NCBI GenBank assembly: GCA_043801585.1
Contig: JAZDLX010000065.1
Location: forward strand, 1-18,692
Direction: 5' to 3'
Length of the DNA: 18,692 nt
DNA from: a bacterium
Lineage (GTDB): Bacteria; Electryoneota; Electryoneia; Electryoneales; Electryoneaceae
Notes under the pieces: model-generated
The model's input: the letters and a program-made list of their open reading frames with translations, nothing else
What the model was told of the DNA's origin: nothing
Database searches by the model: none
Shown: piece after piece, positions 3,138-17,342 of the stretch
Position numbering within the stretch: the stretch's first letter is position 1
How the letters are laid out: each line of letters begins with the position of its first letter
Made by a program: the position numbers and the translations under genes

Positions 3138-3956
3138 TTACGGGTTCAACAGAGCTCCATACAATTCAACTCGCCGGTCACGGAAGCGGTGGTTGTACGA
3201 GTTGTAACTCTTTTCGTCCGCCACCGACAGATCGACCTCGACCGTTGCGATTTCCGGTTTATCCGCTGACCCCGAGGCGAGGATATCGCCACGCGGGCCG
3301 GTAATCTGGCTCTGGCCGGTGAACGTCAACGACCTTCCAACCCGCTGCTCCGTCCCGACCCGGTTCGCCGTAACCACGTAGACTGAATTTTCCAGACAAC
3401 GGGCGAACATCGCGCGCTGACAATAGGGCATCACCAGGTTGCTGGGATGTGCGATGATCTGCACCCCGGCGAGCGCCAGCAGGCGAGCGGTCTCGGGAAA
3501 TGTCCAGTCAAAACAGATCATCATCCCGACCCGGCCTGCTGGAGTATCCACCACCTTCGGCGCTTCATCGCCCGGCGAAAACAGATCATTCTCCCTGTCG
3601 TACAGATGGATTTTCCGGTAGTTCATCAGGGTGCCGTCCGGTGTGGCGAGCATGGATGAATTGAAGAACCGCTGACCCTTCTGTTCCGGGTACCCGATCA
3701 CAACCGTGGTGCCGGTCTCACGGGCCAGCCGTTTCATCCTGCAGGACGTCTGCCCCTCGATGAACTCCTCCGCCATCGTGGCGAGCTCCGCCACGTTGAG
3801 GAATTCATACCCGCTGGTCGCCAGTTCCGGAAAGACCAGAAGATCCACATTGCCGGTCTCACGGACGATGCGTTCAATCTGCGCGATGTTTCCCTCGATA
3901 TCTTCGAAAATCGGCAGGAATTGGCCATAACCGATTGTTTTTATGGTTTCACTCAT
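3138..3956 (-). CDS. Carbon-nitrogen hydrolase (nitrilase/amidase superfamily)
   Basis: Glu-Lys-Cys triad motifs LLVFPELAT, YRKIHL and ICFD, plus ANRVG..FTGQSQI. ATG at 3956 is preferred over 3962 because GGGAG abuts the 3962 ATG and lies 6 nt before the 3956 ATG. Confidence 0.9.
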   Translation of the reverse strand: MSETIKTIGYGQFLPIFEDIEGNIAQIERIVRETGNVDLLVFPELATSGYEFLNVAELATMAEEFIEGQTSCRMKRLARETGTTVVIGYPEQKGQRFFNSSMLATPDGTLMNYRKIHLYDRENDLFSPGDEAPKVVDTPAGRVGMMICFDWTFPETARLLALAGVQIIAHPSNLVMPYCQRAMFARCLENSVYVVTANRVGTEQRVGRSLTFTGQSQITGPRGDILASGSADKPEIATVEVDLSVADEKSYNSYNHRFRDRRVELYGALLNP

Positions 3957-4091
3957 CTTCATCTCCCGATGTCACATGCATGGAAAATGTGCCGAATACA
4001 CGAGAAATTGGTCGGTTTTCTGCAATTTCTGAACGAAATCGATCGAAATTCTCCACATTTTCAACTTATCCGGCTCTTTCTGGATCAGAAA

Positions 4092-4168: not shown

Positions 4169-5296
4169 CTATCTATCCGCCAGATAAACGGAACCCGGCT
4201 CGATCATCGCTCCGCCGGGAAGGTATTCAAGGCAATGCGCCATCCAACCGGTCTGGATCGCCAGGCAGAAGGGAATCGGGAACGCGCTCGCCGGAAGTCC
4301 CAGCGGATGGTAAACGAGGCCGGTGATGCTGTCTACGTTGGCGTAGATCCCCTTGCCGCCAAGCTCCGACTCGACAGTTTCCCGTAACGCCGAATAGGTG
4401 TCCCACATCCCCTCCAACCCCTTCGCTTTGAGCAGCGCGGAAGCGTGAGGTTCAAGGGCACGGACTCGCGGGTCGGGGCATTTGTAGACACGATGGCCAA
4501 AACCGGGGAAACGGAACCCCTCCCGAACCTTCTCTTTCACCCAGGCGTGAGCATGGTCAGGTCCCTCCAGTCGGCGCAGCATCTCGAACGAGAGCTGGTT
4601 GGCGCCACCATGCCGGACGCCGGAGAGCGCCCCCATCCCGGCGAGCACGGCGCTGCCCAGGTCGGCGCCGGTGGAAATCACCACCAGCGCGGCAAACGCG
4701 GCGGCGTGCAGCCCATGTTCCGCCTGCACAATCAGGCTCGCCTCAAAGGCTTTCGTTTCCATCTCCGATGGTACCCGCCCCAACGACTGATAGAGGATGT
4801 GCTGCGCGAAAGGCAGGTCATCTCGCGGCTGTAGCGGAGGCAATCCTTCAAGGTGCCGAATCGCCGCGGCCGCGAGGGAGGATGCCCAACTCAGAATCCT
4901 TGCCGGGCGCCGCCACTGGGCGTCAAGGTGGGTGTTTTCAGGTTCGGGAATGTGGCAGGCGGCGACGGTGAGCATCGTTCTGTACTGCGCGAGTGGGTGA
5001 GCGTCTCCGGGAATCCTGTCGAGGGCGGCAAAAGCCTCCTTGGGTGGGTTGCGCCATTGAACCAACTCGGAACGCCACTCCTCCAGCTTCACAGCATTGG
5101 GAAGGCTTCCGTGCAGAATCAGGTAGCTGACCTCCTCGAAGCAGCAGTGCCGGGCGAGATCCTCGACGTCATAGCTCCGGTAATAGAGCTTCCCCTCGCT
5201 GCCGTCCAACCGGCTGATATCGGTCGAACCAACGATAAGCCCCTCGAGGCCGCGGTTGTAACTCTGGATGTGCGGTGGATCGCTCCGCCCGATCAC
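4169..5296 (-). CDS. Citrate synthase family protein B (catalytic His/His/Asp intact, substrate pocket altered), 375 aa
   Basis: GLEGLIVGSTDISRLDGSEGKLYYR, AEHGL, GVRHGGAN, GFGHRVYKCPDPR, ANVD, GWMAH. The likely start is GTG at 5296, which overlaps the upstream TGA (GTGA) after AAAAGGGGG. The ORF-track extension to 5431 overlaps the upstream gene. Confidence 0.9.
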   Translation of the reverse strand: MIGRSDPPHIQSYNRGLEGLIVGSTDISRLDGSEGKLYYRSYDVEDLARHCCFEEVSYLILHGSLPNAVKLEEWRSELVQWRNPPKEAFAALDRIPGDAHPLAQYRTMLTVAACHIPEPENTHLDAQWRRPARILSWASSLAAAAIRHLEGLPPLQPRDDLPFAQHILYQSLGRVPSEMETKAFEASLIVQAEHGLHAAAFAALVVISTGADLGSAVLAGMGALSGVRHGGANQLSFEMLRRLEGPDHAHAWVKEKVREGFRFPGFGHRVYKCPDPRVRALEPHASALLKAKGLEGMWDTYSALRETVESELGGKGIYANVDSITGLVYHPLGLPASAFPIPFCLAIQTGWMAHCLEYLPGGAMIEPGSVYLADR

Positions 5297-6537
5297 GCAT
5301 CCCCCTTTTCCGGCAGAGGACGCCGGGCATGTCCGGTGTAGTGGGACAACGGTCGGTAAAGGCGGCCACCCTCGATCTCCTCCCGCACCCTCGCCACCAG
5401 TCCCGCCATCCGCCCCACGGCGTAGAGGCACGGCACCAGCGGCGCATCGGCTCCGAGCAGGTGAAACAGCAGCGCGGCGTAAAAGTTGATATTGACGTGT
5501 ATCCCGCGCGGAGCAAGCCGTCTCGTCGCCTCCTCCTCAACCGCACGGGCGGTGTAAAACAGCTCCTCGTAACCCTTGCGACTCGCGACGGATGCCAGCT
5601 CCCGTCTCAGCAACGTCACGCGAGGATCCGCCATGCGATAGACACGATGTCCGAACCCGGCAATCCTTCCGCCCCGTTCGATATGACTGCCCACCCAGTC
5701 GCGGCCATCTTCCGGGCCGCGCAACACAAGAAGCTGTCCCAGGACCTCCTCGACCGCACCCCCGAGCTTCGGGCCACGCAGCGCCGAGAGTCCCGCGACA
5801 ACGTTGTAGTAGGGGTCTGCGAGGCAACTGGCGACAATCAGCGAGGTGAAAGTTGGGGCGTCGAGGCCGTGGTCCGCATAGAGCACCCAGAGCAAGTCCA
5901 GTGTGGCGACATCACGCGGATCGGGATCGCCCTCGCACAGCGCTGCGACTGTGCATTCCGCAAGACTTTTTTCACTATCGAAGGCAACCATATCCCGGCC
6001 GGAACGAAGCCGTGCAATCTGGGCGACAAGCGCGGCGACCTGGCCGACTATCCGCATCTCCCGCCAATGCCTTTCGCCGGCGAGGTCGTCTGATGCTTTC
6101 AATTCATGGCACCCGAGCGCCGAAACTCCCGCCCGCAGCAGCCGTGTCGGGTGAGTGTTTTCCGGATCCATGTCGAGCAGCAAATCGAGCACTTCGGGCG
6201 GCAATGTGCGGCTTTCTCGCAGGTTCCTGCGGAACGTATCCCCGTTCGTGTACTCCGTACCGGGAGCCTCGCCGGTGATCAGCAGCCGAGCGACCTCTTC
6301 GAAACTGACCCGCCCGGCGAGCTGTTCCACGGGGATACCCCGGTAGGCGAGGGTTCCACTGGCCGGATCGAGCCAGGAGACCTTGGTCAACGAGGCGATG
6401 ACGCCGTTCAACCCTCGTCCAACCTCGGTTGTCACAGGCCATTCAAACGTTTTCTCACGCCAATCGTAGTAACCGTCAACCGTCCTTTTGACCTCGCTGC
6501 TCCGCACAACACCTCCGGAAAACGTCGTTGATTTCAT
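5293..6537 (-). CDS. Citrate synthase family protein A (catalytic His and Asp substituted, probable pseudoenzyme), about 414 aa
   Basis: GLNGVIASLTKVSWLDPASGTLAYRG, ADHGL, GFGHRVYRMADPR, GRMAG and RLYRP are present. It has GPKLGGA instead of GPxHGGA and NINF instead of NVDF. Start is ATG 6537, or alternatively GTG 6552. Confidence 0.9.
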   Translation of the reverse strand: MKSTTFSGGVVRSSEVKRTVDGYYDWREKTFEWPVTTEVGRGLNGVIASLTKVSWLDPASGTLAYRGIPVEQLAGRVSFEEVARLLITGEAPGTEYTNGDTFRRNLRESRTLPPEVLDLLLDMDPENTHPTRLLRAGVSALGCHELKASDDLAGERHWREMRIVGQVAALVAQIARLRSGRDMVAFDSEKSLAECTVAALCEGDPDPRDVATLDLLWVLYADHGLDAPTFTSLIVASCLADPYYNVVAGLSALRGPKLGGAVEEVLGQLLVLRGPEDGRDWVGSHIERGGRIAGFGHRVYRMADPRVTLLRRELASVASRKGYEELFYTARAVEEEATRRLAPRGIHVNINFYAALLFHLLGADAPLVPCLYAVGRMAGLVARVREEIEGGRLYRPLSHYTGHARRPLPEKGDA

Positions 6538-6675: not shown

Positions 6676-7806
6676 ATGAGCCCGGATGAACCTGTGACGA
6701 TCGAACCCTACGCAAACGGATTTTCAACCGAGCTGGCTGCGGTCACTCTCCGCCCGAGTGGACTGCTGCGGTCAACAGCGGCGATCTCCGCCGTGCAGCA
6801 GTCATCCGTCTGTCCGAAGTGTGGACGTTCGGGATACGACTGCTGCGAGTACGACGACCGGATCATGATTTCGCCGGAAGGCCAGGCGAAGTCGATGGCA
6901 CTCGCCTCACCACAGGATCTCCTGAAGACTGCGCCTCAGGATTCGGGGCAGCAATCCACCGAAAGCTCCGATTCGACGAAGCGAAGCGATGACACGCCAT
7001 CTTCCCTGACGTCCGTAGCCGTCGATCCCATCACGAAGGAAGAAGCAGGCACAGAGAGCGGGACAGGCGGTGACAGCAGCCATGACAAGGAAAAAGAAAC
7101 CTTGGAACAGGGGCATGAATCGGCGAGCACAGTTCATGACGGCGAACTGTCTGAAGACGAGCAGAAAGAGGTTGACGAACTGAAGAATCGTGAGCAGGAA
7201 GTCCGTCAGCATGAAATGGCGCACAAATCCGCAGCCGGACAGCTTGCGGTTGGTGGACCGAATTACACGTACGAAACGGGACCGGATGGAAAGCAGTATG
7301 CCACCAGTGGCGAGGTCAAGATCGCTGTTGGTTCAGGACAGACCCCGGAAGAGAAACTGCACAACGCACAGCAGGCGGCACGCGCCGCCCTGGCGCCGTC
7401 GGAACCCTCCGGAGAGGACCGCCAGATAGCCGCTGAAGCGCAGCGTGTGGCGATGGAAGCGCAACAGGAACTCAATCAGGATCAGTCCGATGAGACAGGT
7501 CAGGCAGCAGATTCTCGTTCCACGGTCGCCGCTCATTTCGGGACGAAACCCACAGATCAAATCGACAAGCAGGACGGACAGGAAACTTCTTTAGCGCCGT
7601 CGTCAACCTCGCCGACTCAAGCCGATAATCCTGAGAAGTACGGTCACGAAGAAAGCCGAGATGTCAGCGAGTCAGACGACACCCCTCTCGCCCGCACACT
7701 TGCCCGTGTCGCGGACTCATACCGTCAGCAAACCACCCAGCATTCCCGGACGGTGAGTCTTGGCGATGATTTCACCTCAGGCGGCCGTCTCTCCCTGACA
7801 GCGTGA
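6676..7806 (+). CDS. SprA-related family protein (putative HExxH metalloprotein) with low-complexity acidic/Ser-Thr-rich flanks
   Basis: The core ELKNREQEVRQHEMAH...YTYETGPDGKQYATSGEV...TPEE...AALAPSEPSGEDRQIAAEA matches the SprA-related pattern (REVRAHExAH...GPDGxxYAxGGEV...AALAPAxPSxQD). Start could also be the GTG six codons downstream. Confidence 0.85.
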   Translation: MSPDEPVTIEPYANGFSTELAAVTLRPSGLLRSTAAISAVQQSSVCPKCGRSGYDCCEYDDRIMISPEGQAKSMALASPQDLLKTAPQDSGQQSTESSDSTKRSDDTPSSLTSVAVDPITKEEAGTESGTGGDSSHDKEKETLEQGHESASTVHDGELSEDEQKEVDELKNREQEVRQHEMAHKSAAGQLAVGGPNYTYETGPDGKQYATSGEVKIAVGSGQTPEEKLHNAQQAARAALAPSEPSGEDRQIAAEAQRVAMEAQQELNQDQSDETGQAADSRSTVAAHFGTKPTDQIDKQDGQETSLAPSSTSPTQADNPEKYGHEESRDVSESDDTPLARTLARVADSYRQQTTQHSRTVSLGDDFTSGGRLSLTA

Positions 7807-7992: not shown

Positions 7993-10509
7993 TCAAAGCA
8001 CTTTCGCGAGCACGAGAGTGCAATCGTCCTCAAGCATCTTCCGTCCGTGATAATGCATCAACTCCGCTTCAAGCTCAGCGAGAGTGTGGCTCGGTTCATG
8101 GTCTGCGGTGGCGTTGATGTACTGCTTGAGACGGACCACTCCGAATTCCCTGCCATCGGACGCTGTTGCCTCGGGAATCCCATCCGTATAAAGGAGAACC
8201 CGGTCAGTCGGCGACAATTTGACAGTTCCCTGCTCGTATTCGAGATTCGGCTTGACTCCAAGAATCAGACCACCTTCGGACAACTCGCGCGTACGACCGT
8301 TTTTATTGAACACAAGGGGCGGGTTATGACCGGCGTTGACATAGGTCAGAACACGGGTTTTCGGGTCGAAGATGCAGACAAAGAAGGTGATGTATTGTTC
8401 CGAGGGGGTGTTCGCGTGGATCAGATTGTTGATATGCGCGACCATCTGTTTGGGCTCCAATCCGAGAGTTGCGCACATCCGAAGGCTGGCCTGGAGATTC
8501 GCCATGATCAGCGCCGCACCCGCGCCCTTCCCTGAAACGTCTCCCACCGCGAGCAGTGTCCGGTCGTCCGGCAACTGGATGACATCATAGTAATCACCCG
8601 CCACTTCGAGACAGAAACGGCTGCGAGCGGCGACATCGAGACCCGGTGTCTCCGGAATCACGCTGGGGAGGAATCCCTGCTGGATTTGACGCGCCAGGTC
8701 GAGCTGCTCCTCCAGTCTGCGCTTGACGAGGTTTTCTTCCAAGAGGCGAAGGTTTTCGCTGGCGAGCGCCACCTGGTGGGTCAACCCGAGCAGAATGTCC
8801 ACGCTCTCCGGTGTATAGTCATGCCCGCGGGTAGTCCGACCGAGTGCCAGGAATCCGATCAAGCGGAGGCGAGCGAACAACGGGAGCACGAGGAAAATTT
8901 CCTCTTTGCGAATCCAGAACATCTGGCCGTCGGTGAACGGCACGCGGAAGGACGCCATCGCCTCATCGATCAGCACAGGGCGGCTGCTCCGTTCAAGATG
9001 AGCCACCAGGTCACTGGATTCGATGAACGGAGTCAACGACCCGTCATGGGTGTAGAAGACTCCATCGCTCTTCTTCAACACGGCGATCACTTTCGTGATC
9101 CCCAACGCTTCATGCAGACGCTGTCCGACGTGTTTGAAGAGGGTGTCACGATCCGGGAACGATCCCATCCGCTGCGCCAGGTCATCGATCATGATGCGCA
9201 CCTGGTAGCGTTCGGGATAGAACCGTCGTTCCAGCCAATCCTGCAGGAAACGTTGCGCGGGACTGACTCCCAGCGCCAGGGTCATCGCCAGCAGCAGAAT
9301 GGGGGTACGGCTGGTGATGCCCAGGTAGGTGATCAGGAAATGGCCTGCGCCATACACGATGGCAAAAAAGACGAGGAGCAGCGTTGCGGTCAGCAGAAAC
9401 ATGCGGGTCCCCCGCCGCAACTTCCCTTCCACTTCGAGCAGACGATATCGTCCGAAGGCGTAGGCGAGGCTGAGCGGTGTCAGCAGAAGCGCGAGAAATC
9501 CGACATTGGTCAGCAGGAGCTGGCCAGTCAGCGACAGATCGCTGAACCAATCACGCAGGAAACTTGCCGAAACCAGGAGGAAGGTGAGAGCTGTAACTCC
9601 AACAACGGAACCGCGAAGCACCAGTCTTGTCTGCCGCCGCTCAAGCAGCGTCCGAGCCTTGCGGTGGTGACGGTTCAGCAGGATCGTCCCGATCCAGAAC
9701 TGGGCAAGAATCACCGTGACCATCACCCGGGGATGATTCTGCACGACGTTGCTGCGGCTGATCAGCGCCCACATTCCAACAGCAACCTGCGGGCTGTAAA
9801 TGACCAGATATCCCCAGCGCCTGAGCCTCAGAAGCAACCGTGAAGTCCGTGGAAAAACCAGGTGAAGATTCAACCAGAGGCCACCGGCGAAGATCATCAT
9901 CACCCGCAAAACCCTGGAAATGGTCTCCTGTCCGGGAATCTGGAACGTTGCCAATCCCGGGCTTAAGAGAGTGAACATCGTCAACGGGAACGCCGCCATG
10001 GAATAGCAGAACAAGGTGAGCACCCGTACGCCGATAGATTCCGAACGCTTCTGAAATGCCCAGAGTCCGACACCGATAAACGAAAGAATGATCAGCAGTC
10101 GCAGGAATTGCAGCAACAGAAAGGGTATCTTTTCCATCGTCGAGATTTCATGGATCTTCAGGGTTGTACCACGAAGCCGGGTAAACCGTTTATATGAGAT
10201 CAAGATCCTCTCACCGGGCTCATGAGTTGCTGCGAGGAATCCGCTGATCTGATCATGACTGGTGAGGCTGTCGTTGATCGCGATCAGTGTATCACCATCC
10301 GAGGGAATGAAGGTACCCGTAAATTCGCTGCTGTCGACATCTGTGAACACCCAAGTGGCGCCATCCCTGGATTCGATTGTCGAGCTGATGACACCCTCGT
10401 CTGTCCAGGCACGAAGCTTGCTGCTCTCCCAGATGAAGAAGAGCATCACATAGGCCAGAAAAAGCAGGCCGGCGCTTAAGATGAGGCTTTTGATGACGCC
10501 CTTCTGCAC
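7993..10509 (-). CDS. Membrane PP2C/SpoIIE (RsbU-type) Ser/Thr phosphatase: N-terminal TM, PDZ-like domain, multi-TM region, GAF, PP2C
   Basis: PP2C motifs VAGDYYD, VGDVSGKG, YVNAGHNPP, LYTDG and DDCT. GAF-like LVLPL..RLIGFLALG...VALASEN. PDZ-like GDTLIAIND...GERILISYKR. GTG start after GAGGAGG. Confidence 0.92.
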   Translation of the reverse strand: MQKGVIKSLILSAGLLFLAYVMLFFIWESSKLRAWTDEGVISSTIESRDGATWVFTDVDSSEFTGTFIPSDGDTLIAINDSLTSHDQISGFLAATHEPGERILISYKRFTRLRGTTLKIHEISTMEKIPFLLLQFLRLLIILSFIGVGLWAFQKRSESIGVRVLTLFCYSMAAFPLTMFTLLSPGLATFQIPGQETISRVLRVMMIFAGGLWLNLHLVFPRTSRLLLRLRRWGYLVIYSPQVAVGMWALISRSNVVQNHPRVMVTVILAQFWIGTILLNRHHRKARTLLERRQTRLVLRGSVVGVTALTFLLVSASFLRDWFSDLSLTGQLLLTNVGFLALLLTPLSLAYAFGRYRLLEVEGKLRRGTRMFLLTATLLLVFFAIVYGAGHFLITYLGITSRTPILLLAMTLALGVSPAQRFLQDWLERRFYPERYQVRIMIDDLAQRMGSFPDRDTLFKHVGQRLHEALGITKVIAVLKKSDGVFYTHDGSLTPFIESSDLVAHLERSSRPVLIDEAMASFRVPFTDGQMFWIRKEEIFLVLPLFARLRLIGFLALGRTTRGHDYTPESVDILLGLTHQVALASENLRLLEENLVKRRLEEQLDLARQIQQGFLPSVIPETPGLDVAARSRFCLEVAGDYYDVIQLPDDRTLLAVGDVSGKGAGAALIMANLQASLRMCATLGLEPKQMVAHINNLIHANTPSEQYITFFVCIFDPKTRVLTYVNAGHNPPLVFNKNGRTRELSEGGLILGVKPNLEYEQGTVKLSPTDRVLLYTDGIPEATASDGREFGVVRLKQYINATADHEPSHTLAELEAELMHYHGRKMLEDDCTLVLAKVL

Positions 10510-10544
10510 TCCGCAACCTCCTCAGGATCAATCATTCGACGAAT

Positions 10545-13175
10545 TCAGTTTCCTCGACGTTTTCGTACTGTCTTTCTTCCAGAGCTCATTTTGCCGCCAC
10601 TCTTCTTTTGATTCCCGGCGACAGATCGTGCCCTCTCATGCTTCGGCACCGCCCTCGCGATCAGGAGAGTGAAATCATCCGCAAATGTATCAACACCGGA
10701 AAATAAAATTACCTGTTTACGCACTTCCGCAACAATCTCCTCGATCGGTTTTCCAACCTTTGACCGAATCGCATCGATGAGACGTTCCACGCCGAACTCC
10801 TGTTCCGCATTGTTCATCGCCTCGGTAACGCCATCGGTAAAGAGGACCAGGGTATCGCCGGGACGAAGTGTTATTTCTCCCACTTCATAGGTCCTCCGCG
10901 GCAGCACTCCAAGGATCAAGCCACCCACATTCAATGGTTCAACTTTGGCACTTCGTGCCCGAAGCAGCAAAGGAGGATTGTGTCCTGCGTTCACATATCT
11001 CATCCGTCCGGAGGAGAGATGTTCGGCGACAAAAAACGTGATATAGGATTCAATGGGGGTGTTCTGGCAGATGATGTCGTTGATCCCGGAAACCATGGCG
11101 CCAAGATCCGCCTGGACTCGCACGAGTGCCCGGAGGCTCGCCTGCAAGTTGGCCATGATCAGCGCTGCGCCCGCGCCTTTCCCCGAGACATCCCCCACCG
11201 CGATGACGGTTCGATTGTTTTCATCACGGATGACGTCATAATAATCACCCGCGACCTCGAGGCTGAACAGGCTGGTCGCCGCAATCTCCAGGCCTGGAGT
11301 CTGTGGGATACGCTGGGGAAGAAAACCCTGCTGGATCTGCCGCGCCAGGTCGAGCTGCTCCTCAAGACGTCGTTTCTCGAAATTCTCTTCCAACAGGACA
11401 TGATTCTCGAGCGCCAGTCCCAGTTGATCCGCCAGGCTTCCGAGAATCTGAACCTCCTCAATCCGAAAATGCTCGTCATCAACTTTGCCGCCAAGGGCGA
11501 GAATCCCCGCAAGTTTCGATCCGCTGGTCAAGGGCAAGATCAACACTATCCTGTTTTCCATCAACCATTCACGCTCACCGGGCAGCAGCGTTCTGTCCTC
11601 CTCCCCCGTGATCTCATCCACGAAAAGCGGCTGGCGTCGGAAATGGAGCATTCCAGTAAAACGGCTGTTGGGATCGAAAGGTGTGGGTTGCCGGTCCAAT
11701 GTTGTGAAACCCATCCCTTCTTCGAATTTGAGGGGAATCACCACCTTTACGCTCAGTCCGTCCCGCAGAGACTGGATCAGATCCCGGTAGAGCGTGTCAC
11801 GGTTCGGCATCGATGCGGCGCGGCGAATAAAATCGTTTATCAGAGCGCGCAGTTTCCGGCGTTCAGGATAGAATCGAACCTCCAGCCATCCCTGCAGCTG
11901 TTTCTGGATCGGAGCGACGCTCGCAGCGAGCACGACAGCCAGAATCAGCACCGGAGTGCGGCTGGTGATTCCGAAAACTTTGACCATCAGGTTGCTGGCA
12001 ACCAGAACAAGTACCAGCATCAGGGCGAGAAAGATGCCCGCTGTCAACGCATAACGTGTACCCCGGCGCAATTTCGCTTCAACATCGAAGAGTCCGCACC
12101 GGTTGAAAGCAATCAGAAAAGAATAGGGAATCAACAACATGAATAGAGTGAAAACGAGGACAATGAAAATACGTGCATCATTGGGGAGGCCGTTGATGGA
12201 ATTGGTCCCGAAAAAGATCAAGACAAGAACCATCAGAAGAAACGGAGTGAGACCAATGCCAGTTCCACGAGCAACCAGCCTCGTCTGCCGTTTCACCAGA
12301 TCCGTATCAGCTCTGCCATAATGGAAGCCGAGCAGTATAAAACCGGCAGCCATCTGCAGGATGATCGTGCCAAGCGAAAACCAGCCTGTGACAACGGGTG
12401 AGACCACACCGGTGATGACGAACAAGTAGACGATGATCATCGGCGCATAGCAGAGTGAATAGGCAAGCCACGGAAATTTCATCCTGATTTTCGAGGGTTT
12501 TGGGAAGAGAAAATGCAGGTTCAGCCAGAATGCGGAGAAAAAGGACGCATAGACACCAAGCCCATTTCTTATGAAAGGTTGCAAAGGTGAGAGAATTCCC
12601 GCTTTATACCCCTCAAGGGATTGGACTGCCTGCAGCATCATCGCAGCCAACGCGAAGCTGAAGAATGCAAAGGCACGCACGCTGGGTGAATTCGGCTGAC
12701 GGATCAGCCCGATCATTCCCACTGCAAAGAAAGCAAAAACAAGCAGGAAACGTACGATATGCATGGTTATAACGCTGATCAGGCGCACCGTGGGAACGGT
12801 GTGGGCGACAGCGTTGGCCGTGAGCGTGTCACCCTGAGACAGATAGACCACAGTGACCACCTCGCCAATGGGCATCGGCCGATCGACGTATTTCAACAAT
12901 TTCGCTGTCGTTGCCGTCTCCTGATTGACGGTGAGTAAGGTGTCTCCCCGGGAAGGACGTGGATGCTCTGGAAAATCACTCGTTTGTACATCAACAAAGA
13001 CGACAGTGCTGGCATCGCGGGCGATCACATCTGTCTGAATCGAACCGGATTTTTGCCAAAGGACGAGTGCACCGGAATGAATGATCAGCGATCCCAAGAA
13101 CAGAAGAAAGACCAGCCCGGCGGCTACCGCAGTAGCGATGGTAACAACTCGATCAATGCGGCCTTTCGAAGTCAT
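10545..13175 (-). CDS. Membrane PP2C/SpoIIE (RsbU-type) phosphatase paralog with the same architecture and a basic C-terminal tail
   Basis: VAGDYYD, VGDVSGKG, YVNAGHNPP, LFTDG and DDFT. GAF-like LILPL...GILALG...LALEN. PDZ-like GDTLLTVNQ...GEVVTVVY. ATG start after GGAGA. Confidence 0.92.
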   Translation of the reverse strand: MTSKGRIDRVVTIATAVAAGLVFLLFLGSLIIHSGALVLWQKSGSIQTDVIARDASTVVFVDVQTSDFPEHPRPSRGDTLLTVNQETATTAKLLKYVDRPMPIGEVVTVVYLSQGDTLTANAVAHTVPTVRLISVITMHIVRFLLVFAFFAVGMIGLIRQPNSPSVRAFAFFSFALAAMMLQAVQSLEGYKAGILSPLQPFIRNGLGVYASFFSAFWLNLHFLFPKPSKIRMKFPWLAYSLCYAPMIIVYLFVITGVVSPVVTGWFSLGTIILQMAAGFILLGFHYGRADTDLVKRQTRLVARGTGIGLTPFLLMVLVLIFFGTNSINGLPNDARIFIVLVFTLFMLLIPYSFLIAFNRCGLFDVEAKLRRGTRYALTAGIFLALMLVLVLVASNLMVKVFGITSRTPVLILAVVLAASVAPIQKQLQGWLEVRFYPERRKLRALINDFIRRAASMPNRDTLYRDLIQSLRDGLSVKVVIPLKFEEGMGFTTLDRQPTPFDPNSRFTGMLHFRRQPLFVDEITGEEDRTLLPGEREWLMENRIVLILPLTSGSKLAGILALGGKVDDEHFRIEEVQILGSLADQLGLALENHVLLEENFEKRRLEEQLDLARQIQQGFLPQRIPQTPGLEIAATSLFSLEVAGDYYDVIRDENNRTVIAVGDVSGKGAGAALIMANLQASLRALVRVQADLGAMVSGINDIICQNTPIESYITFFVAEHLSSGRMRYVNAGHNPPLLLRARSAKVEPLNVGGLILGVLPRRTYEVGEITLRPGDTLVLFTDGVTEAMNNAEQEFGVERLIDAIRSKVGKPIEEIVAEVRKQVILFSGVDTFADDFTLLIARAVPKHERARSVAGNQKKSGGKMSSGRKTVRKRRGN

Positions 13176-13212: not shown

Positions 13213-13854
13213 TTATGCAATTCCATGTTGTTTCTTGTATTCCAGCCAATTCTGTTTCAATTCGTAAAAGGACTTGAAATCAATCCTGAGAAGGAACGGA
13301 TTTGTCTTTTTCTCCTCGCCAATCGTCGAGACCGGTTTGACTCCAAAATCATGACCGGGAAAAACCCGCACGTTGTCCGGCAAACCCATCAATTTCCTGT
13401 GCAGGCTCTCGAACTCGCTGCGAGCCTGTTTCTCGGTTGTTGTCCCTCCCACCTTGCCAACAAACAGAGTATCCCCGGTGAACAGGGCATCGTCCACCCT
13501 CAGGCAGATGCAATCCTCCGTGTGGCCGGGCGTATGAATGATCTCCACCTCGTGGTCGCCCAACGGTAACCGGATTCCGTCGAGCAGTTTCACCTGCGTG
13601 ATCTCTTCGACGTCACCATATCCCATCGCGTGACGGCCGGTCAGCTTACGCATCCGCTCGTTGCCATTGGTATGGTCATCATGACGGTGTGTGTTGAACA
13701 CATAGTGAATCTTCAGTCCCCAGTCCTCGGCGTACATCGCCAGCGCATCGGGATCATAGGAGGGATCAACCACCATCGCCACTTTCCATTTTTCATCCGC
13801 GCACAGATAGGCAAAATTCCGGTCGCCCCCCGTTTCGAATTGCTCGATGATCAT
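13213..13854 (-). CDS. MBL-fold metallo-hydrolase (glyoxalase II / persulfide dioxygenase-like), 213 aa
   Basis: THRHDDH, HTPGHT, FTGDTLF, FPGH and STIGEEKKTNPFL. ATG 13854 follows GGAGGAAGGG, so it is preferred over the ORF-track start at 13944. Confidence 0.88.
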   Translation of the reverse strand: MIIEQFETGGDRNFAYLCADEKWKVAMVVDPSYDPDALAMYAEDWGLKIHYVFNTHRHDDHTNGNERMRKLTGRHAMGYGDVEEITQVKLLDGIRLPLGDHEVEIIHTPGHTEDCICLRVDDALFTGDTLFVGKVGGTTTEKQARSEFESLHRKLMGLPDNVRVFPGHDFGVKPVSTIGEEKKTNPFLLRIDFKSFYELKQNWLEYKKQHGIA

Positions 13855-14070
13855 ATCCCTTCCTCCTTTCACCGCGCCCTGAATGTACCTTGCATAGCGA
13901 GAAAAGGTGAGATGTTCGATAAAGGTACACCTGCTCCATCCCAACGGCGAGCAGGGAGTTTAAACCGCCGTCCAACCTGCTCGGGAGCCTCGAGCCTTTA
14001 CGAATGCTGGATTTTACGGCGCATCTTGAACCACGTTTAAACCCTCAAGCCTGTCTACCCTGGAGGCATC

Positions 14071-14784
14071 ATGACAGAATCTGCTGACACTGTGATCCGC
14101 CTGCAGGAACTGACGAAAGTTTACCATGGTGGCGGGGGCGACGTTGTCGCCGTGGATCACCTTTCGCTTTCCATCCCCTCCGGCGTCACCGTTCTCGCCG
14201 GTCCCTCCGGGTGCGGCAAATCAACCCTGGTCAATCTCCTGGGAGCATTGGACCATCCCACCTCCGGGATCGTCGAAGTCGCTGGACACATCCTGTCAGA
14301 ACTGAACGAAGACCAGATCGATCACTTTCGCCGAAAGACAGTCGGCATTGTTTTCCAGTTTTTCCATCTGATGCCGGTCCTGACGGTGCTGGAAAATGTG
14401 GCTCTTCCAGCCGAACTCGCGGGGACATCCCCCAGTTTGGCTCGTCAACGGGCGGCCGCTCTCCTCGAGCGGGTCGGGCTTGCACACCGGGCTGGCCATC
14501 AGCCGCATGAACTGTCCGGAGGCGAGATCCAACGGACCGCCATCGCCCGGGCACTGGTCAACAATCCCGCCGTCGTGCTCGCGGACGAACCCACCGGCAA
14601 CCTGGACAGCGCGGCGAGCCGCCGTGTGATGGAACTCTTCGCGGAAGCAGTTACCGGAGAGGGAGCATCCGCTGTGGTGGCCACCCACGATCCGGATGTT
14701 GTCGCCCGGGCGGACCGGGTTTTCCACCTGCTCGACGGACGGCTGGAACGGATCGAGGAGAACGCCGCCGGAGTACAGCCGTGA
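14071..14784 (+). CDS. ABC transporter ATP-binding protein (LolD/MacB-type)
   Basis: Walker [10 protein letters not shown]-loop GIVFQ, signature LSGGEIQR, Walker B/D-loop [12 protein letters not shown]-loop ATHD. GGAGG RBS. Confidence 0.95.
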
Positions 14785-17342
14785 GACCGCTTCCCCGATT
14801 GATCCTTCGCAACTGGGCCGCACGCCCGGGCCGAACCCTGCTCGCCATCGGTGGAGTTGCCCTCGGCGTGGCGGTCCTGCTCGCCGTGCGTGTCGCCAAT
14901 TACTCCGCCATCGAAGCGTTCACACGGACGCTGGAGATGGTTGCCGGACGAGCTGACATCGAAATTTTCGCCGAAGGTGAAGCGGGGATGGACCCGTCGA
15001 TCTTCCCGCCCTTCACCCGGATGAACGGCATCGCAGCCGCGACCCCGGCGTTCATGATGCGTGGGCACGCCGGGCAGTCACGACGGGGGATTCGCCTGAT
15101 GGGAGTCGATCTCGCGCGGGACAGCCGGGTTCGTCCCTGGTACCGGGCGGAACTCGAACCGGGCCAGGATCCCCTGACACTGTTCACGACGCCGAACGGC
15201 GCACTGATCACCCCCGCCCTCGCGGACGAATTGGGGTTGCGCCGGGGCGACCGGTTCCCCATTTATCACGCCGCGCAGGTGGACACGCTTGTGCTGATGG
15301 GATTGCTCGCGGGCGAGGATGTCAGCCAGGCGAGAAGCCGCGACCTCGTGGTCATGGACCTCCCGCGAGCCTGGGAGCTCACCGGTAACCGTCGCGTGAT
15401 TCACCGCATCGACCTGATCCTCGAACCGGGAATCCCTGTCGCTGACGCCCTCGCCGATCTGCGGACGTGGCTGCCTGCGGGTGTGACCGCCGAGGCGTCC
15501 GGTTGGCAACGCCCTCAGGCCCGCAAGATGCTCGCCTCGTTTCGTTTGAACCTGACCGCACTGGCGTTTGTGGCGCTCCTCGTCGCCGGATTTCTCGTGT
15601 TTCAGACCGTTTCGACCACGGCTCTCGAACGGCGGCGTTCGGCGGGTGTGCTCCGCTCGGTGGGGGCGTCGAGAAGGTTTGTCCGTGACCTGTTTCTCAC
15701 GGAAGGGGCCGCTCTCGGACTCACCGGTGGGTTGCTCGGGATTCCGTTGGGACTGCTGCTCGCCCGAGTGGCGGTGATCCTCGTCAGCCAATCCGTCAGC
15801 TCGATCTACCTGCTCGAGGGGACTCACCAGGTGTGGATACCGACCGAAGCGGTGATCACATCGTTCCTGCTCGGCCTCGGGGTATCGCTCCTGTCGGTCG
15901 CTCCGGTCGCGGCGGAAGCCTCGCGTGTTCCTCCGCGGGAAAGCCTCGCCCGCCAGACCCTCGAAGGGAAGCTCAATCCGCGTCGGCTTGCCCTGTTCGG
16001 CGCTCTGATGCTGGCTGTCGGCGGAGTGCTGACGAAATGGCCGCTGCAGCCGATCCCTGTGCTCAGCGGGTACGCTGCGGCGATGCTGCTTGTGTTCGGA
16101 ATGGCACTGGCGACGCCGTGGACGCTGGGAGTTCTCTATCGCATAATCATCGCCGTCGGCGGGAAAAAACTGGGGTCGGGCGTCCGTCTCGCGCTCGGTG
16201 TGCTCGTCCGTTCACGGCACCGGATCACCCCCGCCGTCGCCGGGCTGGCGACCGCCGTGGCGATGTGGCTCAGCGTGGACATGATGGTCCGCTCCTTCCG
16301 TGACACCGTGGACAACTGGATGCAGTCCACAATCACCGCCGACCTGATCGTGATGGCGGGCGGGTCGTTCAACGTCGGCAAACGGGATCTGCTCCCGCTG
16401 GACGTTTTCTTCGACATCAGGAACGCTCCGGGAATCGCCGACGCGGACCTTTTCAAGAGTGTCCGGTTGCCCATCGAGGGGTTGCCCACCACGGTGGCGA
16501 TGGTGGATGCCGGGTCGGTCGGACGTCAGGAACGGCTCTCCTACCTGGAGAAGGTGCACGGCGGCCAACCGACAGACGCCCTCACGGCGGGCGAAGAGGC
16601 ATGCCTGATCAGCGAGCCCCTCGCCTTCCGCAGTCATCTGAACGTCGGTGACACCCTTCGTTTCATCGGACCCATCGGCTCCGAAGCGCTCGCGATCGAG
16701 GGCGTCTACTACGATTATTCGAGCGACGCCGGACTTGTGCTGGTGGACCGTTCGTGGTATCTGAAACGGTGGCCGGAACCGTCAATCGAATCGGTGGCGG
16801 TGTACCTGCCGAAAGGGATGAGCCTTACGGAGGGACGACGGATCATCGAGCAGGCGGTGCCCCCGAAATACACCATCGAGATTTTCAGCAACCGGGATCT
16901 GCGCCGGGGTGTGCTCGCCGTCTTCGACAACACCTTCGCGATTACCTATGCGCTGGAGGCGGTGGCGGTGATGGTCGCGTTGCTCGCGGTCAGCGGAGGA
17001 ATGACAACCCTCGTGCAGGAACGGCGGCGCGAACTGGCGATCCTTCGTGCGGTCGGCGGCAGCCGCAGACAGATCCTCCGCCGTGTACTGGCCGAGGCGG
17101 GATTGATCGGATTTTCGGGATGGCTGCTGGGGGCTGTGCTCGGCGCCGCGCTCAGCGTCGTGCTCACCTACGTCGTCAACCGCTACTCCTTCGGCTGGTC
17201 CCTGCACCTGAAACTGCCCGGCGGCACCTTCGCGCTTTCGGGTGTGCTGATGATCGCCGCCGCACTGCTCGCGGGTGCGCTTCCCGCACGGAACGCGTCA
17301 CGGATTTCGGTGGCGGAGGGCGTCCGCGTCGATTCGGAATGA
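14781..17342 (+). CDS. ABC transporter permease, duplicated MacB-PCD/FtsX type
   Basis: RPGRTLLAIGGVALGVAV, and two FtsX-type motifs (ERRRSAGVLRSVGASRR and ERRRELAILRAVGGSRRQI). GTG start overlaps the ATPase stop (GTGA). Confidence 0.93.
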   Translation: MRPLPRLILRNWAARPGRTLLAIGGVALGVAVLLAVRVANYSAIEAFTRTLEMVAGRADIEIFAEGEAGMDPSIFPPFTRMNGIAAATPAFMMRGHAGQSRRGIRLMGVDLARDSRVRPWYRAELEPGQDPLTLFTTPNGALITPALADELGLRRGDRFPIYHAAQVDTLVLMGLLAGEDVSQARSRDLVVMDLPRAWELTGNRRVIHRIDLILEPGIPVADALADLRTWLPAGVTAEASGWQRPQARKMLASFRLNLTALAFVALLVAGFLVFQTVSTTALERRRSAGVLRSVGASRRFVRDLFLTEGAALGLTGGLLGIPLGLLLARVAVILVSQSVSSIYLLEGTHQVWIPTEAVITSFLLGLGVSLLSVAPVAAEASRVPPRESLARQTLEGKLNPRRLALFGALMLAVGGVLTKWPLQPIPVLSGYAAAMLLVFGMALATPWTLGVLYRIIIAVGGKKLGSGVRLALGVLVRSRHRITPAVAGLATAVAMWLSVDMMVRSFRDTVDNWMQSTITADLIVMAGGSFNVGKRDLLPLDVFFDIRNAPGIADADLFKSVRLPIEGLPTTVAMVDAGSVGRQERLSYLEKVHGGQPTDALTAGEEACLISEPLAFRSHLNVGDTLRFIGPIGSEALAIEGVYYDYSSDAGLVLVDRSWYLKRWPEPSIESVAVYLPKGMSLTEGRRIIEQAVPPKYTIEIFSNRDLRRGVLAVFDNTFAITYALEAVAVMVALLAVSGGMTTLVQERRRELAILRAVGGSRRQILRRVLAEAGLIGFSGWLLGAVLGAALSVVLTYVVNRYSFGWSLHLKLPGGTFALSGVLMIAAALLAGALPARNASRISVAEGVRVDSE

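Follow-up and report, generated by a model that had tools for sequence, protein, structure and literature searches.

Contig JAZDLX010000065.1 of assembly GCA_043801585.1, from a bacterium of the family Electryoneaceae, was analyzed over its whole length of 18,692 nucleotides, here called the window. It carries two adjoining minus-strand genes, A and B, which an earlier note made by eye had singled out as a possible pair of enzyme and pseudoenzyme. The genes and their junction are:

6537-5293, minus strand: gene A, a citrate-synthase-fold protein of 414 residues without the catalytic His and Asp; reading frame intact, full length

5296-4169, minus strand: gene B, a citrate-synthase-fold protein of 375 residues; reading frame intact, full length

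5293..5296, minus strand: GTGA start/stop overlap of A and B, in which GTG (5296-5294) overlaps TGA (5295-5293)

The overlap of two full-length citrate-synthase-fold genes by GTGA is confirmed here. PF00285 (model length 357) is covered nearly end to end by both, over positions 1-356 in A and 1-354 in B. The two proteins are 30% identical to each other. A G-rich run resembling a Shine-Dalgarno sequence lies inside the end of A, ahead of the overlap, and the GTGA arrangement likely couples the translation of A and B. The true start of A may be the GTG at 6507 instead of the ATG at 6537: it would give a protein of 404 residues, has a GGAGG just upstream, and the two closest homologs are 404 residues long. 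A scan for promoters and terminators at the locus returned chance-level results, and a look-up of RNA runs listed none.

Structure prediction and family searches place both proteins within the citrate synthase superfamily, at some distance from its curated members. The model of B (predicted local distance difference test, pLDDT, 83) superimposes on the dimeric type II citrate synthase of Thermus with template modeling (TM) scores of 0.84-0.86, and the model of A (pLDDT 80) reaches about 0.76-0.78, normalized by query, against type II citrate synthases. Both fall below the curated cut-off in all NCBIfam families listed (21 for A and 22 for B). For TIGR01800 the scores are 273.8 and 296.8 against a cut-off of 421.3, for the 2-methylcitrate synthase PrpC model PRK12351 they are 186 and 225 against 550, and the citryl-coenzyme A (CoA) lyase families, including PRK06224, give no more than 92 bits where the cut-offs are 193-409. 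PF00285 was the only Pfam match on either protein, with no PF00682 DRE-TIM barrel of the 3-hydroxy-3-methylglutaryl-CoA (HMG-CoA) lyase type PRK05692, and a search of the ESM Atlas returned generic citrate synthase clusters only.

To compare active sites we use the conventional pig numbering unless A or B is given; E. coli GltA and PrpC and solved structures, aligned with both proteins, served to place the positions. Tallies refer to 63 full-length pairs (57 distinct at 95% identity, 24 at 70%), obtained from 105 scanned loci, and separately to the best 120 of 360 A homologs and the best 120 of 347 B homologs. The residues that matter most are these:

5764..5766, minus strand: A Leu258 in place of catalytic His274; His in 0/63 pairs (Leu 23, Gln 22, Thr 12, others 6)

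5485..5487, minus strand: A Asn351 in place of catalytic Asp375; Asn in 62/63, His in 1/63

5860..5862, minus strand: A Asp226 in place of Asn242; invariant (63/63 pairs, 120/120 of the best 120 of 360 homologs)

5353..5364, minus strand: A arm Arg392 and Arg395 (= Arg421; Arg395 codon 5355-5353); Arg392 in 61/63, Arg395 in 62/63

4256..4258, minus strand: B Ile347 in place of Arg401; Ile 61 and Asn 2 of 63, Ile 117 and Val 3 of the best 120

4706..4708, minus strand: B His197 instead of Asn242, in the pocket of Arg401; His in 58/63 and in 120/120 of the best homologs

4610..4612, minus strand: B His229 = catalytic His274, retained; 62/63

4331..4333, minus strand: B Asp322 = catalytic Asp375, retained; 58/63

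4199..4201, minus strand: B Glu366 in place of arm Arg421; Arg in 0/63 (Glu 46, Ala 8, Ser 6, Thr 2, Asp 1)

The four codons that the earlier note had named (5766-5764, 5487-5485, 5355-5353 and 4201-4199) encode what it said they do, and its assignments by eye agree with the alignments: in GltA terms A Leu258 corresponds to His264, A Asn351 to Asp362, and both A Arg395 and B Glu366 to Arg407. A retains His238, His320 (its own His297), Arg329, Arg401 and Arg421, and its pocket is strongly conserved, with Asp226, Arg306 and Arg376 each present in every pair. His274 and Asp375 are found in none of the best 120 A homologs and in none of the A members of the pairs. B retains His238, His274, His320 (its His268, 63/63), Arg329 and Asp375, and the triad of His274, His320 and Asp375 on one chain thus holds for B and fails for A (Leu258, His297, Asn351). 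The description of B as the mirror image of A stands as far as the kept His and Asp and the lost Arg421 are concerned; it had missed that Arg401 and Asn242 are gone as well. Neither Arg401 nor Arg421 occurs in any of the best 120 B homologs. Further changes in B are Ala199 for Ser244 (Ser in 99% of controls), Ser323 for Phe376, the residue after the catalytic Asp, and Gln191, which aligns with a His in GltA and a Tyr in PrpC. From Gln191 and the Ser after the catalytic Asp it follows that the acyl donor may differ too.

As a control, the 150 best representatives at 50% identity were taken from a search with the B profile. All ten columns were filled in 142 of them, of which 3 belong to the B family and 139 do not. 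Among these 139, all 139 have Arg401, 138 have His274 and 135 have Arg421, while position 375 is Asp in 126 and Glu in 10. The residue losses in A and B are not chance. The B family is also sharply bounded in the profile search, in which its one full-length representative scores 649 bits and the next full-length protein 342. In a tree of 99 rows, built by a quick method, A and B each form a clade with support 100 on a long stem.

The pairing of the two genes is strict. Orthologs of A occur in 16 of 41 related genomes, at 18 loci, and B follows at all 18; in the phylum as a whole B is present in 18 of 79 genomes. Named records with the pair bear the labels Acidobacteriota (including Thermoanaerobaculia), Calditrichaeota, candidate division LCP-89, Eisenbacteria and Pseudomonadota; 13 of their 14 loci show A then B, and the contig of the fourteenth ends inside A. 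Co-occurrence of A and B orthologs had been set beforehand as a test of the proposal, and metagenomes gave a clear answer: 245 stretches encode a B relative, 80 were kept, 59 of these have at least 200 bases upstream, and A lies there in 59 of 59. The in-frame four-base NTGA overlap recurs in 61 of the 63 pairs. The expected conservation of the reciprocal losses was likewise found, A never carrying His274 or Asp375 (0/120 proteins, 0/63 pairs) and B never Arg421 (0/63). Both genes are under purifying selection, with median ratios of nonsynonymous to synonymous substitution rates of 0.17 for A and 0.13 for B, and a highest value for A of 0.30 among 100 non-independent comparisons. Recent decay of A is ruled out by the conservation of its losses across homologs and pairs; judged by its sequence record, A is an old, selected, pseudoenzyme-like protein. 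A variant of B was seen in G010 (L057:2309-3601), where an in-frame insertion of about 60 residues lies within the small domain and precedes the GFGHR loop.

Which residues are kept and which are relaxed provides the argument that A and B work together. In the Metallosphaera citrate synthase, as its structure report describes, the C-terminal loop wraps around the neighboring subunit and lends Arg351 to its site (PMC6386500). Over the 63 pairs, the B core retains Arg262 (basic in 63), Arg269 (61), Lys315 (basic in 63) and Asn320 (61). Basic residues of the Arg262, Arg269 and Lys315 type presumably bind CoA, as in the Pyrococcus structure. Conservation is looser at the other site: A Arg291 is basic in 28/63 and Arg298 in 48/63, B position 363 is basic in 25/63, and position 366 is never Arg. 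The arm arginines are thus retained on A and relaxed on B, just as the heterodimer model had required. Since the kept residues are those needed by a site made of the B core and the A arm, while the other site is relaxed, a heterodimer is likely, and we regard its formation as quite probable.

Features outside the active site are in line with this. In the dimer-interface helices, as located from solved structures, A and B show opposite family-specific changes in size, with Gly137 in A against Met108 in B, and again Tyr243-Tyr244-Asn245 in A against Gly214-Ser215-Ala216 in B; we infer that these residues touch each other. Beyond the arm, B ends in a short tail of 7-17 residues, where the controls have a median of 20 (12 or fewer in 1 of 112 controls), and A has a longer, conserved N-terminal extension that contains Trp. 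No natural A-B fusion was found among 8000 longer candidates at E 1e-40, which is weak evidence. Taken together, A is likely a non-catalytic partner that donates its C-terminal arm, and B is likely the catalytic subunit, with a remodeled acceptor pocket.

What would such a composite site do? The earlier note had proposed that the arm arginine of A completes the site of B. In that form the proposal is not supported, as the Arg401 missing from B acts in cis and cannot come from A. The set of triad, Arg329, Arg401 in cis and Arg421 in trans is assembled by none of A:A, B:B and A:B, and no combination has a full oxaloacetate site because B is without Arg401; for this reason it is improbable that the composite site acts as that of a citrate synthase. 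The structural literature points to what has been removed. In the Metallosphaera enzyme, Arg332 is reported to be salt-bridged to the carboxyl at C3 of citrate and oxaloacetate, Asn182 to contact both carboxyls, and Arg351 of the other subunit to bind the other one (PMC6386500). A preprint has Arg401 binding the carboxyl beside the ketone (10.1101/2024.11.06.622199), and His262 and Arg271 are described as binding the carbonyl and alpha-carboxylate oxygens (PMC4601594). Counted by hand on the alignment, Arg332 falls on B Ile347, Asn182 on B His197, and Arg351 on B Glu366 (A Arg395). With the main alpha-carboxylate anchor lost to a hydrophobic Ile347, the pair is probably not a citrate synthase.

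We lean, by a small measure, toward a heterodimer whose live site does not use oxaloacetate. The best explanation we can offer, and a tentative one, is an obligate A:B heterodimer with one composite site that joins an acyl-CoA to a 3-oxo acid without an alpha-carboxylate. Coupled translation would supply equal amounts of A and B, and the single working site would consist of the catalytic residues of B and the C-terminal arm of A. The Asp/His pair of B would enolize the acyl-CoA, likely acetyl-CoA; His320 and Arg329 of B would polarize the ketone; A Arg395 would anchor the distal carboxylate; and B Ile347 would face a methyl or some larger neutral group. The second site, made of the A core and the B arm, would be catalytically dead. 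That the acceptor is a 3-oxo acid or an aldehyde without an alpha-carboxylate is possible, though we hold it with doubt, and acetoacetate, the simplest fit, is, taken singly, rather unlikely. Its adduct would be shaped like (3S)-citryl-CoA in which a methyl replaces the carboxylate; with Cahn-Ingold-Prelog priorities assigned by hand, this is (S)-HMG-CoA, the natural isomer. In that case the pair would catalyze an HMG-CoA aldol or retro-aldol reaction, or would release free 3-hydroxy-3-methylglutarate if the hydrolysis step is retained. In a wider wording, the prospects are about even that a pseudoenzyme and a catalytic chain complete one site across their interface, altered at the alpha-carboxylate pocket, and together carry out a C-C reaction not recorded for the fold, for example the conversion of acetyl-CoA and acetoacetate into HMG-CoA or into 3-hydroxy-3-methylglutarate, or else a 2-oxo-acid condensation of the Re type.

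A number of observations weigh against this picture. The arm region has low confidence in the single-chain models of both A and B, and the assignment of the substrate rests on one structural argument. A keeps His238, His320, Arg329 and Arg401, and its Asn375 is near-invariant, which exceeds what a purely structural partner would require. The conservation of its own pocket is fully explained by neither a catalytic nor a non-catalytic reading. The pairwise identities of A and B correlate well (r = 0.91), yet correlated divergence is expected of close neighbors without any binding. No pathway gene travels with the pair, and outside the window's family unrelated genes follow it. Among relatives, 13 of 41 genomes have a methylcrotonyl-CoA carboxylase with neither HMG-CoA lyase nor the pair, the pair genome G019 shows neither methylcrotonyl-CoA carboxylase nor an archaeal-type HMG-CoA synthase, and the idea that the pair replaces HMG-CoA lyase was rejected, as 5 of 9 named-locus pair genomes have a lyase above the curated cut-off. 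Finally, the composite site is broken in 6 of the 63 pairs (5 distinct), by replacement of Asp375 in B with Tyr or Gly in five and of Arg421 in A with Tyr in one, and two of these broken-site pairs are still 91% (A) and 84% (B) identical with synonymous sites saturated. Their conservation means that something besides the proposed chemistry can keep the pair under selection.

The broken-site pairs form one clade in both the A and the B tree (support 100, 40 rows). The loci in and around it are L060, L063, L064, L041, L065, L066 and L203. L203, a close relative, retains the site as far as visible; in L066, another close relative, both A and B are frameshifted, as they are in L044, by assembly error or as pseudogenes. 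Second copies also occur in genomes with an intact pair. The pattern fits relaxed selection after loss of the reaction, and it also fits a non-catalytic job. At L063 the pair is followed by a gene for a DASS anion transporter.

The main alternative, in itself fairly unlikely, keeps the same heterodimer and the same site and changes the acceptor to a 2-oxo acid other than oxaloacetate. Such an acid could be flipped, with its carboxylate on A Arg395 and its side chain at Ile347, leading to products of the citramalate, isopropylmalate or homocitrate type, or it could be held by a metal on a cluster of B His194, His197, His229 and His268 that replaces Arg401. Both versions draw on the same Arg-to-Ile and Asn-to-His changes in B. 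Genome G000 encodes large and small subunits like those of homoaconitase or isopropylmalate isomerase and a homoisocitrate-dehydrogenase-like gene, with no strong match to a DRE-TIM synthase, and aminotransferase (7/27) and 2-oxoglutarate dehydrogenase (8/27) genes are frequent downstream of the pair in the window's family. However, the dehydrogenase and the isomerase-like large subunit are far more widespread in the phylum than the pair and occur in members of this family that do not have it; a flipped carboxylate would sit one bond closer and might miss the arm Arg; and Arg329 is retained beside the supposed metal site. Somewhat less probable is a heterodimer whose main task is regulation or the binding of an acyl-CoA or a carboxylate, and in which catalysis plays a minor part or none. 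One clade broke its composite site in several ways and was nevertheless conserved, the pocket of A is strongly conserved, pathway neighbors are missing, and Caulobacter CitA offers a precedent for a non-catalytic function of a citrate synthase, as its preprint reports (bioRxiv 10.1101/799742). Yet 57 of the 63 pairs keep the entire composite set including the catalytic Asp, the losses lie within a single clade whose frameshifted L066 and second copies fit relaxed selection, and a Pfam scan detected no DNA-binding or signaling domain on A or B.

The pair could also act as separate homodimers in one pathway, with B2 working on a substrate that needs neither arginine and A2 serving as a binder or, through Asp226 and Asn351, as an enzyme for another reaction. 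This is about as improbable as a purely binding role. It would explain the conservation of A directly, as A2 would have His238, His320, Arg329, Arg401 and Arg421; it suits the low identity between the two proteins; and characterized prokaryotic citrate synthases are homo-oligomers according to a survey (PMC11615384). It leaves unexplained, however, that B keeps its basic CoA-side residues in cis and relaxes its arm while A does the reverse, and also the opposite size changes in the interface helices and the short tail of B. The least probable of these alternatives is the version of the earlier note, in which A:B has remained a citrate (or 2-methylcitrate) synthase whose dead site may be regulatory. 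The best family matches are indeed type II citrate and 2-methylcitrate synthases, 2-oxoglutarate dehydrogenase genes follow the pair in the window's family, and His197 could partly replace Arg401. Against this stand the distribution of Arg401, which all 139 other representatives and none of the 63 B proteins have, scores for A and B far under every curated NCBIfam cut-off, a separate intact citrate synthase in the genome, and the absence of prpB and prpD among the neighbor proteins scanned.

The genome of the window is 92% complete. Its intact citrate synthase is of the eukaryote type, lies on contig C59, passes PRK09569 and has all motifs intact, which makes the pair unlikely as the housekeeping enzyme. 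In five other pair genomes checked, a further gene of the citrate synthase family was present in every one, with motifs seen intact in three. Next to the pair in the window lie two more genes:

3138..3962, minus strand: carbon-nitrogen hydrolase (PF00795), co-oriented with the pair; a neighbor mainly in the window's own family

after the hydrolase, running off the left end of the window: 2-oxoglutarate dehydrogenase E1, assigned from a clustered ortholog

The hydrolase and the E1 gene are each near the pair in 8 of 27 loci. Upstream of the pair, 6676-7806 and 7993-13175 encode a divergent protein of low complexity, related to SprA, and two membrane GAF-SpoIIE phosphatases in tandem, an arrangement found in close relatives only. 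The stretch 13213-17342, with a metallo-beta-lactamase-fold hydrolase and a pair of ABC ATPase and FtsX/MacB permease, looks ordinary. Elsewhere, a conserved gene of about 350-390 residues without a Pfam match runs convergent with B at L167:1269-2456 (minus strand) and 37 other loci (38 in all).

Several pathway links were followed across genomes. G000 has a methylcrotonyl-CoA-carboxylase-like gene, named by resemblance and by an ortholog in a leucine operon, and HMG-CoA lyase was not found there. In the phylum, lyase-like matches occur in 12 of 79 genomes, 4 of the 12 being close to the query (59-100% identity), and in none of the 18 pair genomes. As a test of lyase replacement this is blunted by the many genomes that lack both lyase and pair and by an archaeal-type HMG-CoA synthase in the leucine operon, the latter in one genome read fully. 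Genes for HMG-CoA synthase, thiolase and DUF35 are clustered upstream of the pair at 4 of 27 loci, all from one family and three from one genus; this is suggestive and is not used as support here. The pair as the missing synthase of 2-oxo-acid elongation was rejected on counts, the dehydrogenase being present in 69 and the isomerase-like large subunit in 55 of 79 genomes against 18 for the pair, and so was a link to beta-keto acid cleavage enzymes, which were seen in 1 of 79 genomes, not a pair genome.

The operon at L204 (G038:C1:146000-160000) deserves mention in its own right. In this leucine-type operon, which has no lyase, genes for an archaeal-type HMG-CoA synthase, thiolase and DUF35 protein lie directly upstream of, and co-oriented with, those for carboxyltransferase, enoyl-CoA hydratase, biotin carboxylase, biotin carrier and acyl-CoA dehydrogenase, all named by resemblance. 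The archaeal-type HMG-CoA synthase occurs in 49 of 79 genomes of the phylum and the lyase-like protein in 12 of 79, with both in one. This suggests either leucine breakdown with the HMG-CoA synthase working backward or a pathway that leads from acetyl-CoA to isovaleryl-CoA. At L067:835-2193 (G000:C206:33219-34574), a weakly PF00682-like protein without a recognizable DRE motif directly follows a LeuD/HacB-like gene; similar weak matches of 400-450 residues recur across the family.

The two-gene family is real, widespread and apparently undescribed. In the full-text literature searched, which includes few subscription journals and was queried in part for residue roles, no heteromeric or pseudoenzyme citrate synthase pair is described; the citrate synthases found there are homo-oligomers with a near-invariant acceptor pocket. 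If our reading is right, the pair would be a new architecture for a textbook fold, probably with a new reaction, and a natural case of duplicated subunits made mutually dependent by reciprocal loss of residues acting in cis and in trans. Hundreds of "citrate synthase" sequences in uncultured bacteria would then belong to the A/B enzyme. At least some 350 sequence clusters per gene are called citrate or 2-methylcitrate synthase where they are named, and this annotation would then need correcting.

Among known systems, the closest are the type II Si-citrate and 2-methylcitrate synthases of TIGR01800, for example those of Thermus thermophilus (1iom/1ixe), Sulfolobus tokodaii (1vgp) and Metallosphaera sedula (6abx) and E. 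coli PrpC. A and B share with them the full-length PF00285 fold, 30-35% identity, TM scores of 0.76-0.86, the GFGHR loop and the C-terminal arm, and the pair would work much as an acyl-CoA aldol enzyme of the Si-citrate synthase type does. Known members of TIGR01800 also share an active site between subunits; they are homo-oligomers with two complete sites per dimer, as are, in oligomeric state, the 40 prokaryotic citrate synthases of one survey (PMC11615384). Unlike in these enzymes, the residues of the A/B pair are split over two coupled genes, and even the composite site has no Arg401 and carries His at the place of Asn242. The same fold recurs in citryl-CoA lyase and in the CSH/CCL module of ATP-citrate lyase, where, as described in PMC10115795, it binds or cleaves (3S)-citryl-CoA, a model for a retro-aldol role of the pair; these modules comprise about 260 residues, whereas A (414) and B (375) are full-length. 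HMG-CoA lyase (PRK05692), a DRE-TIM metallolyase, handles the reaction proposed here as the simplest fit, between acetyl-CoA plus acetoacetate and (S)-HMG-CoA. Its fold is unrelated, the likeness is a functional analogy only, and the enzyme co-occurs with the pair in the five named-locus genomes mentioned above. Caulobacter CitA, going by its preprint (bioRxiv 10.1101/799742), keeps the citrate synthase fold for a role independent of catalysis; it differs from the pair in being an active enzyme rather than a natural pseudoenzyme that has a partner gene of its own.

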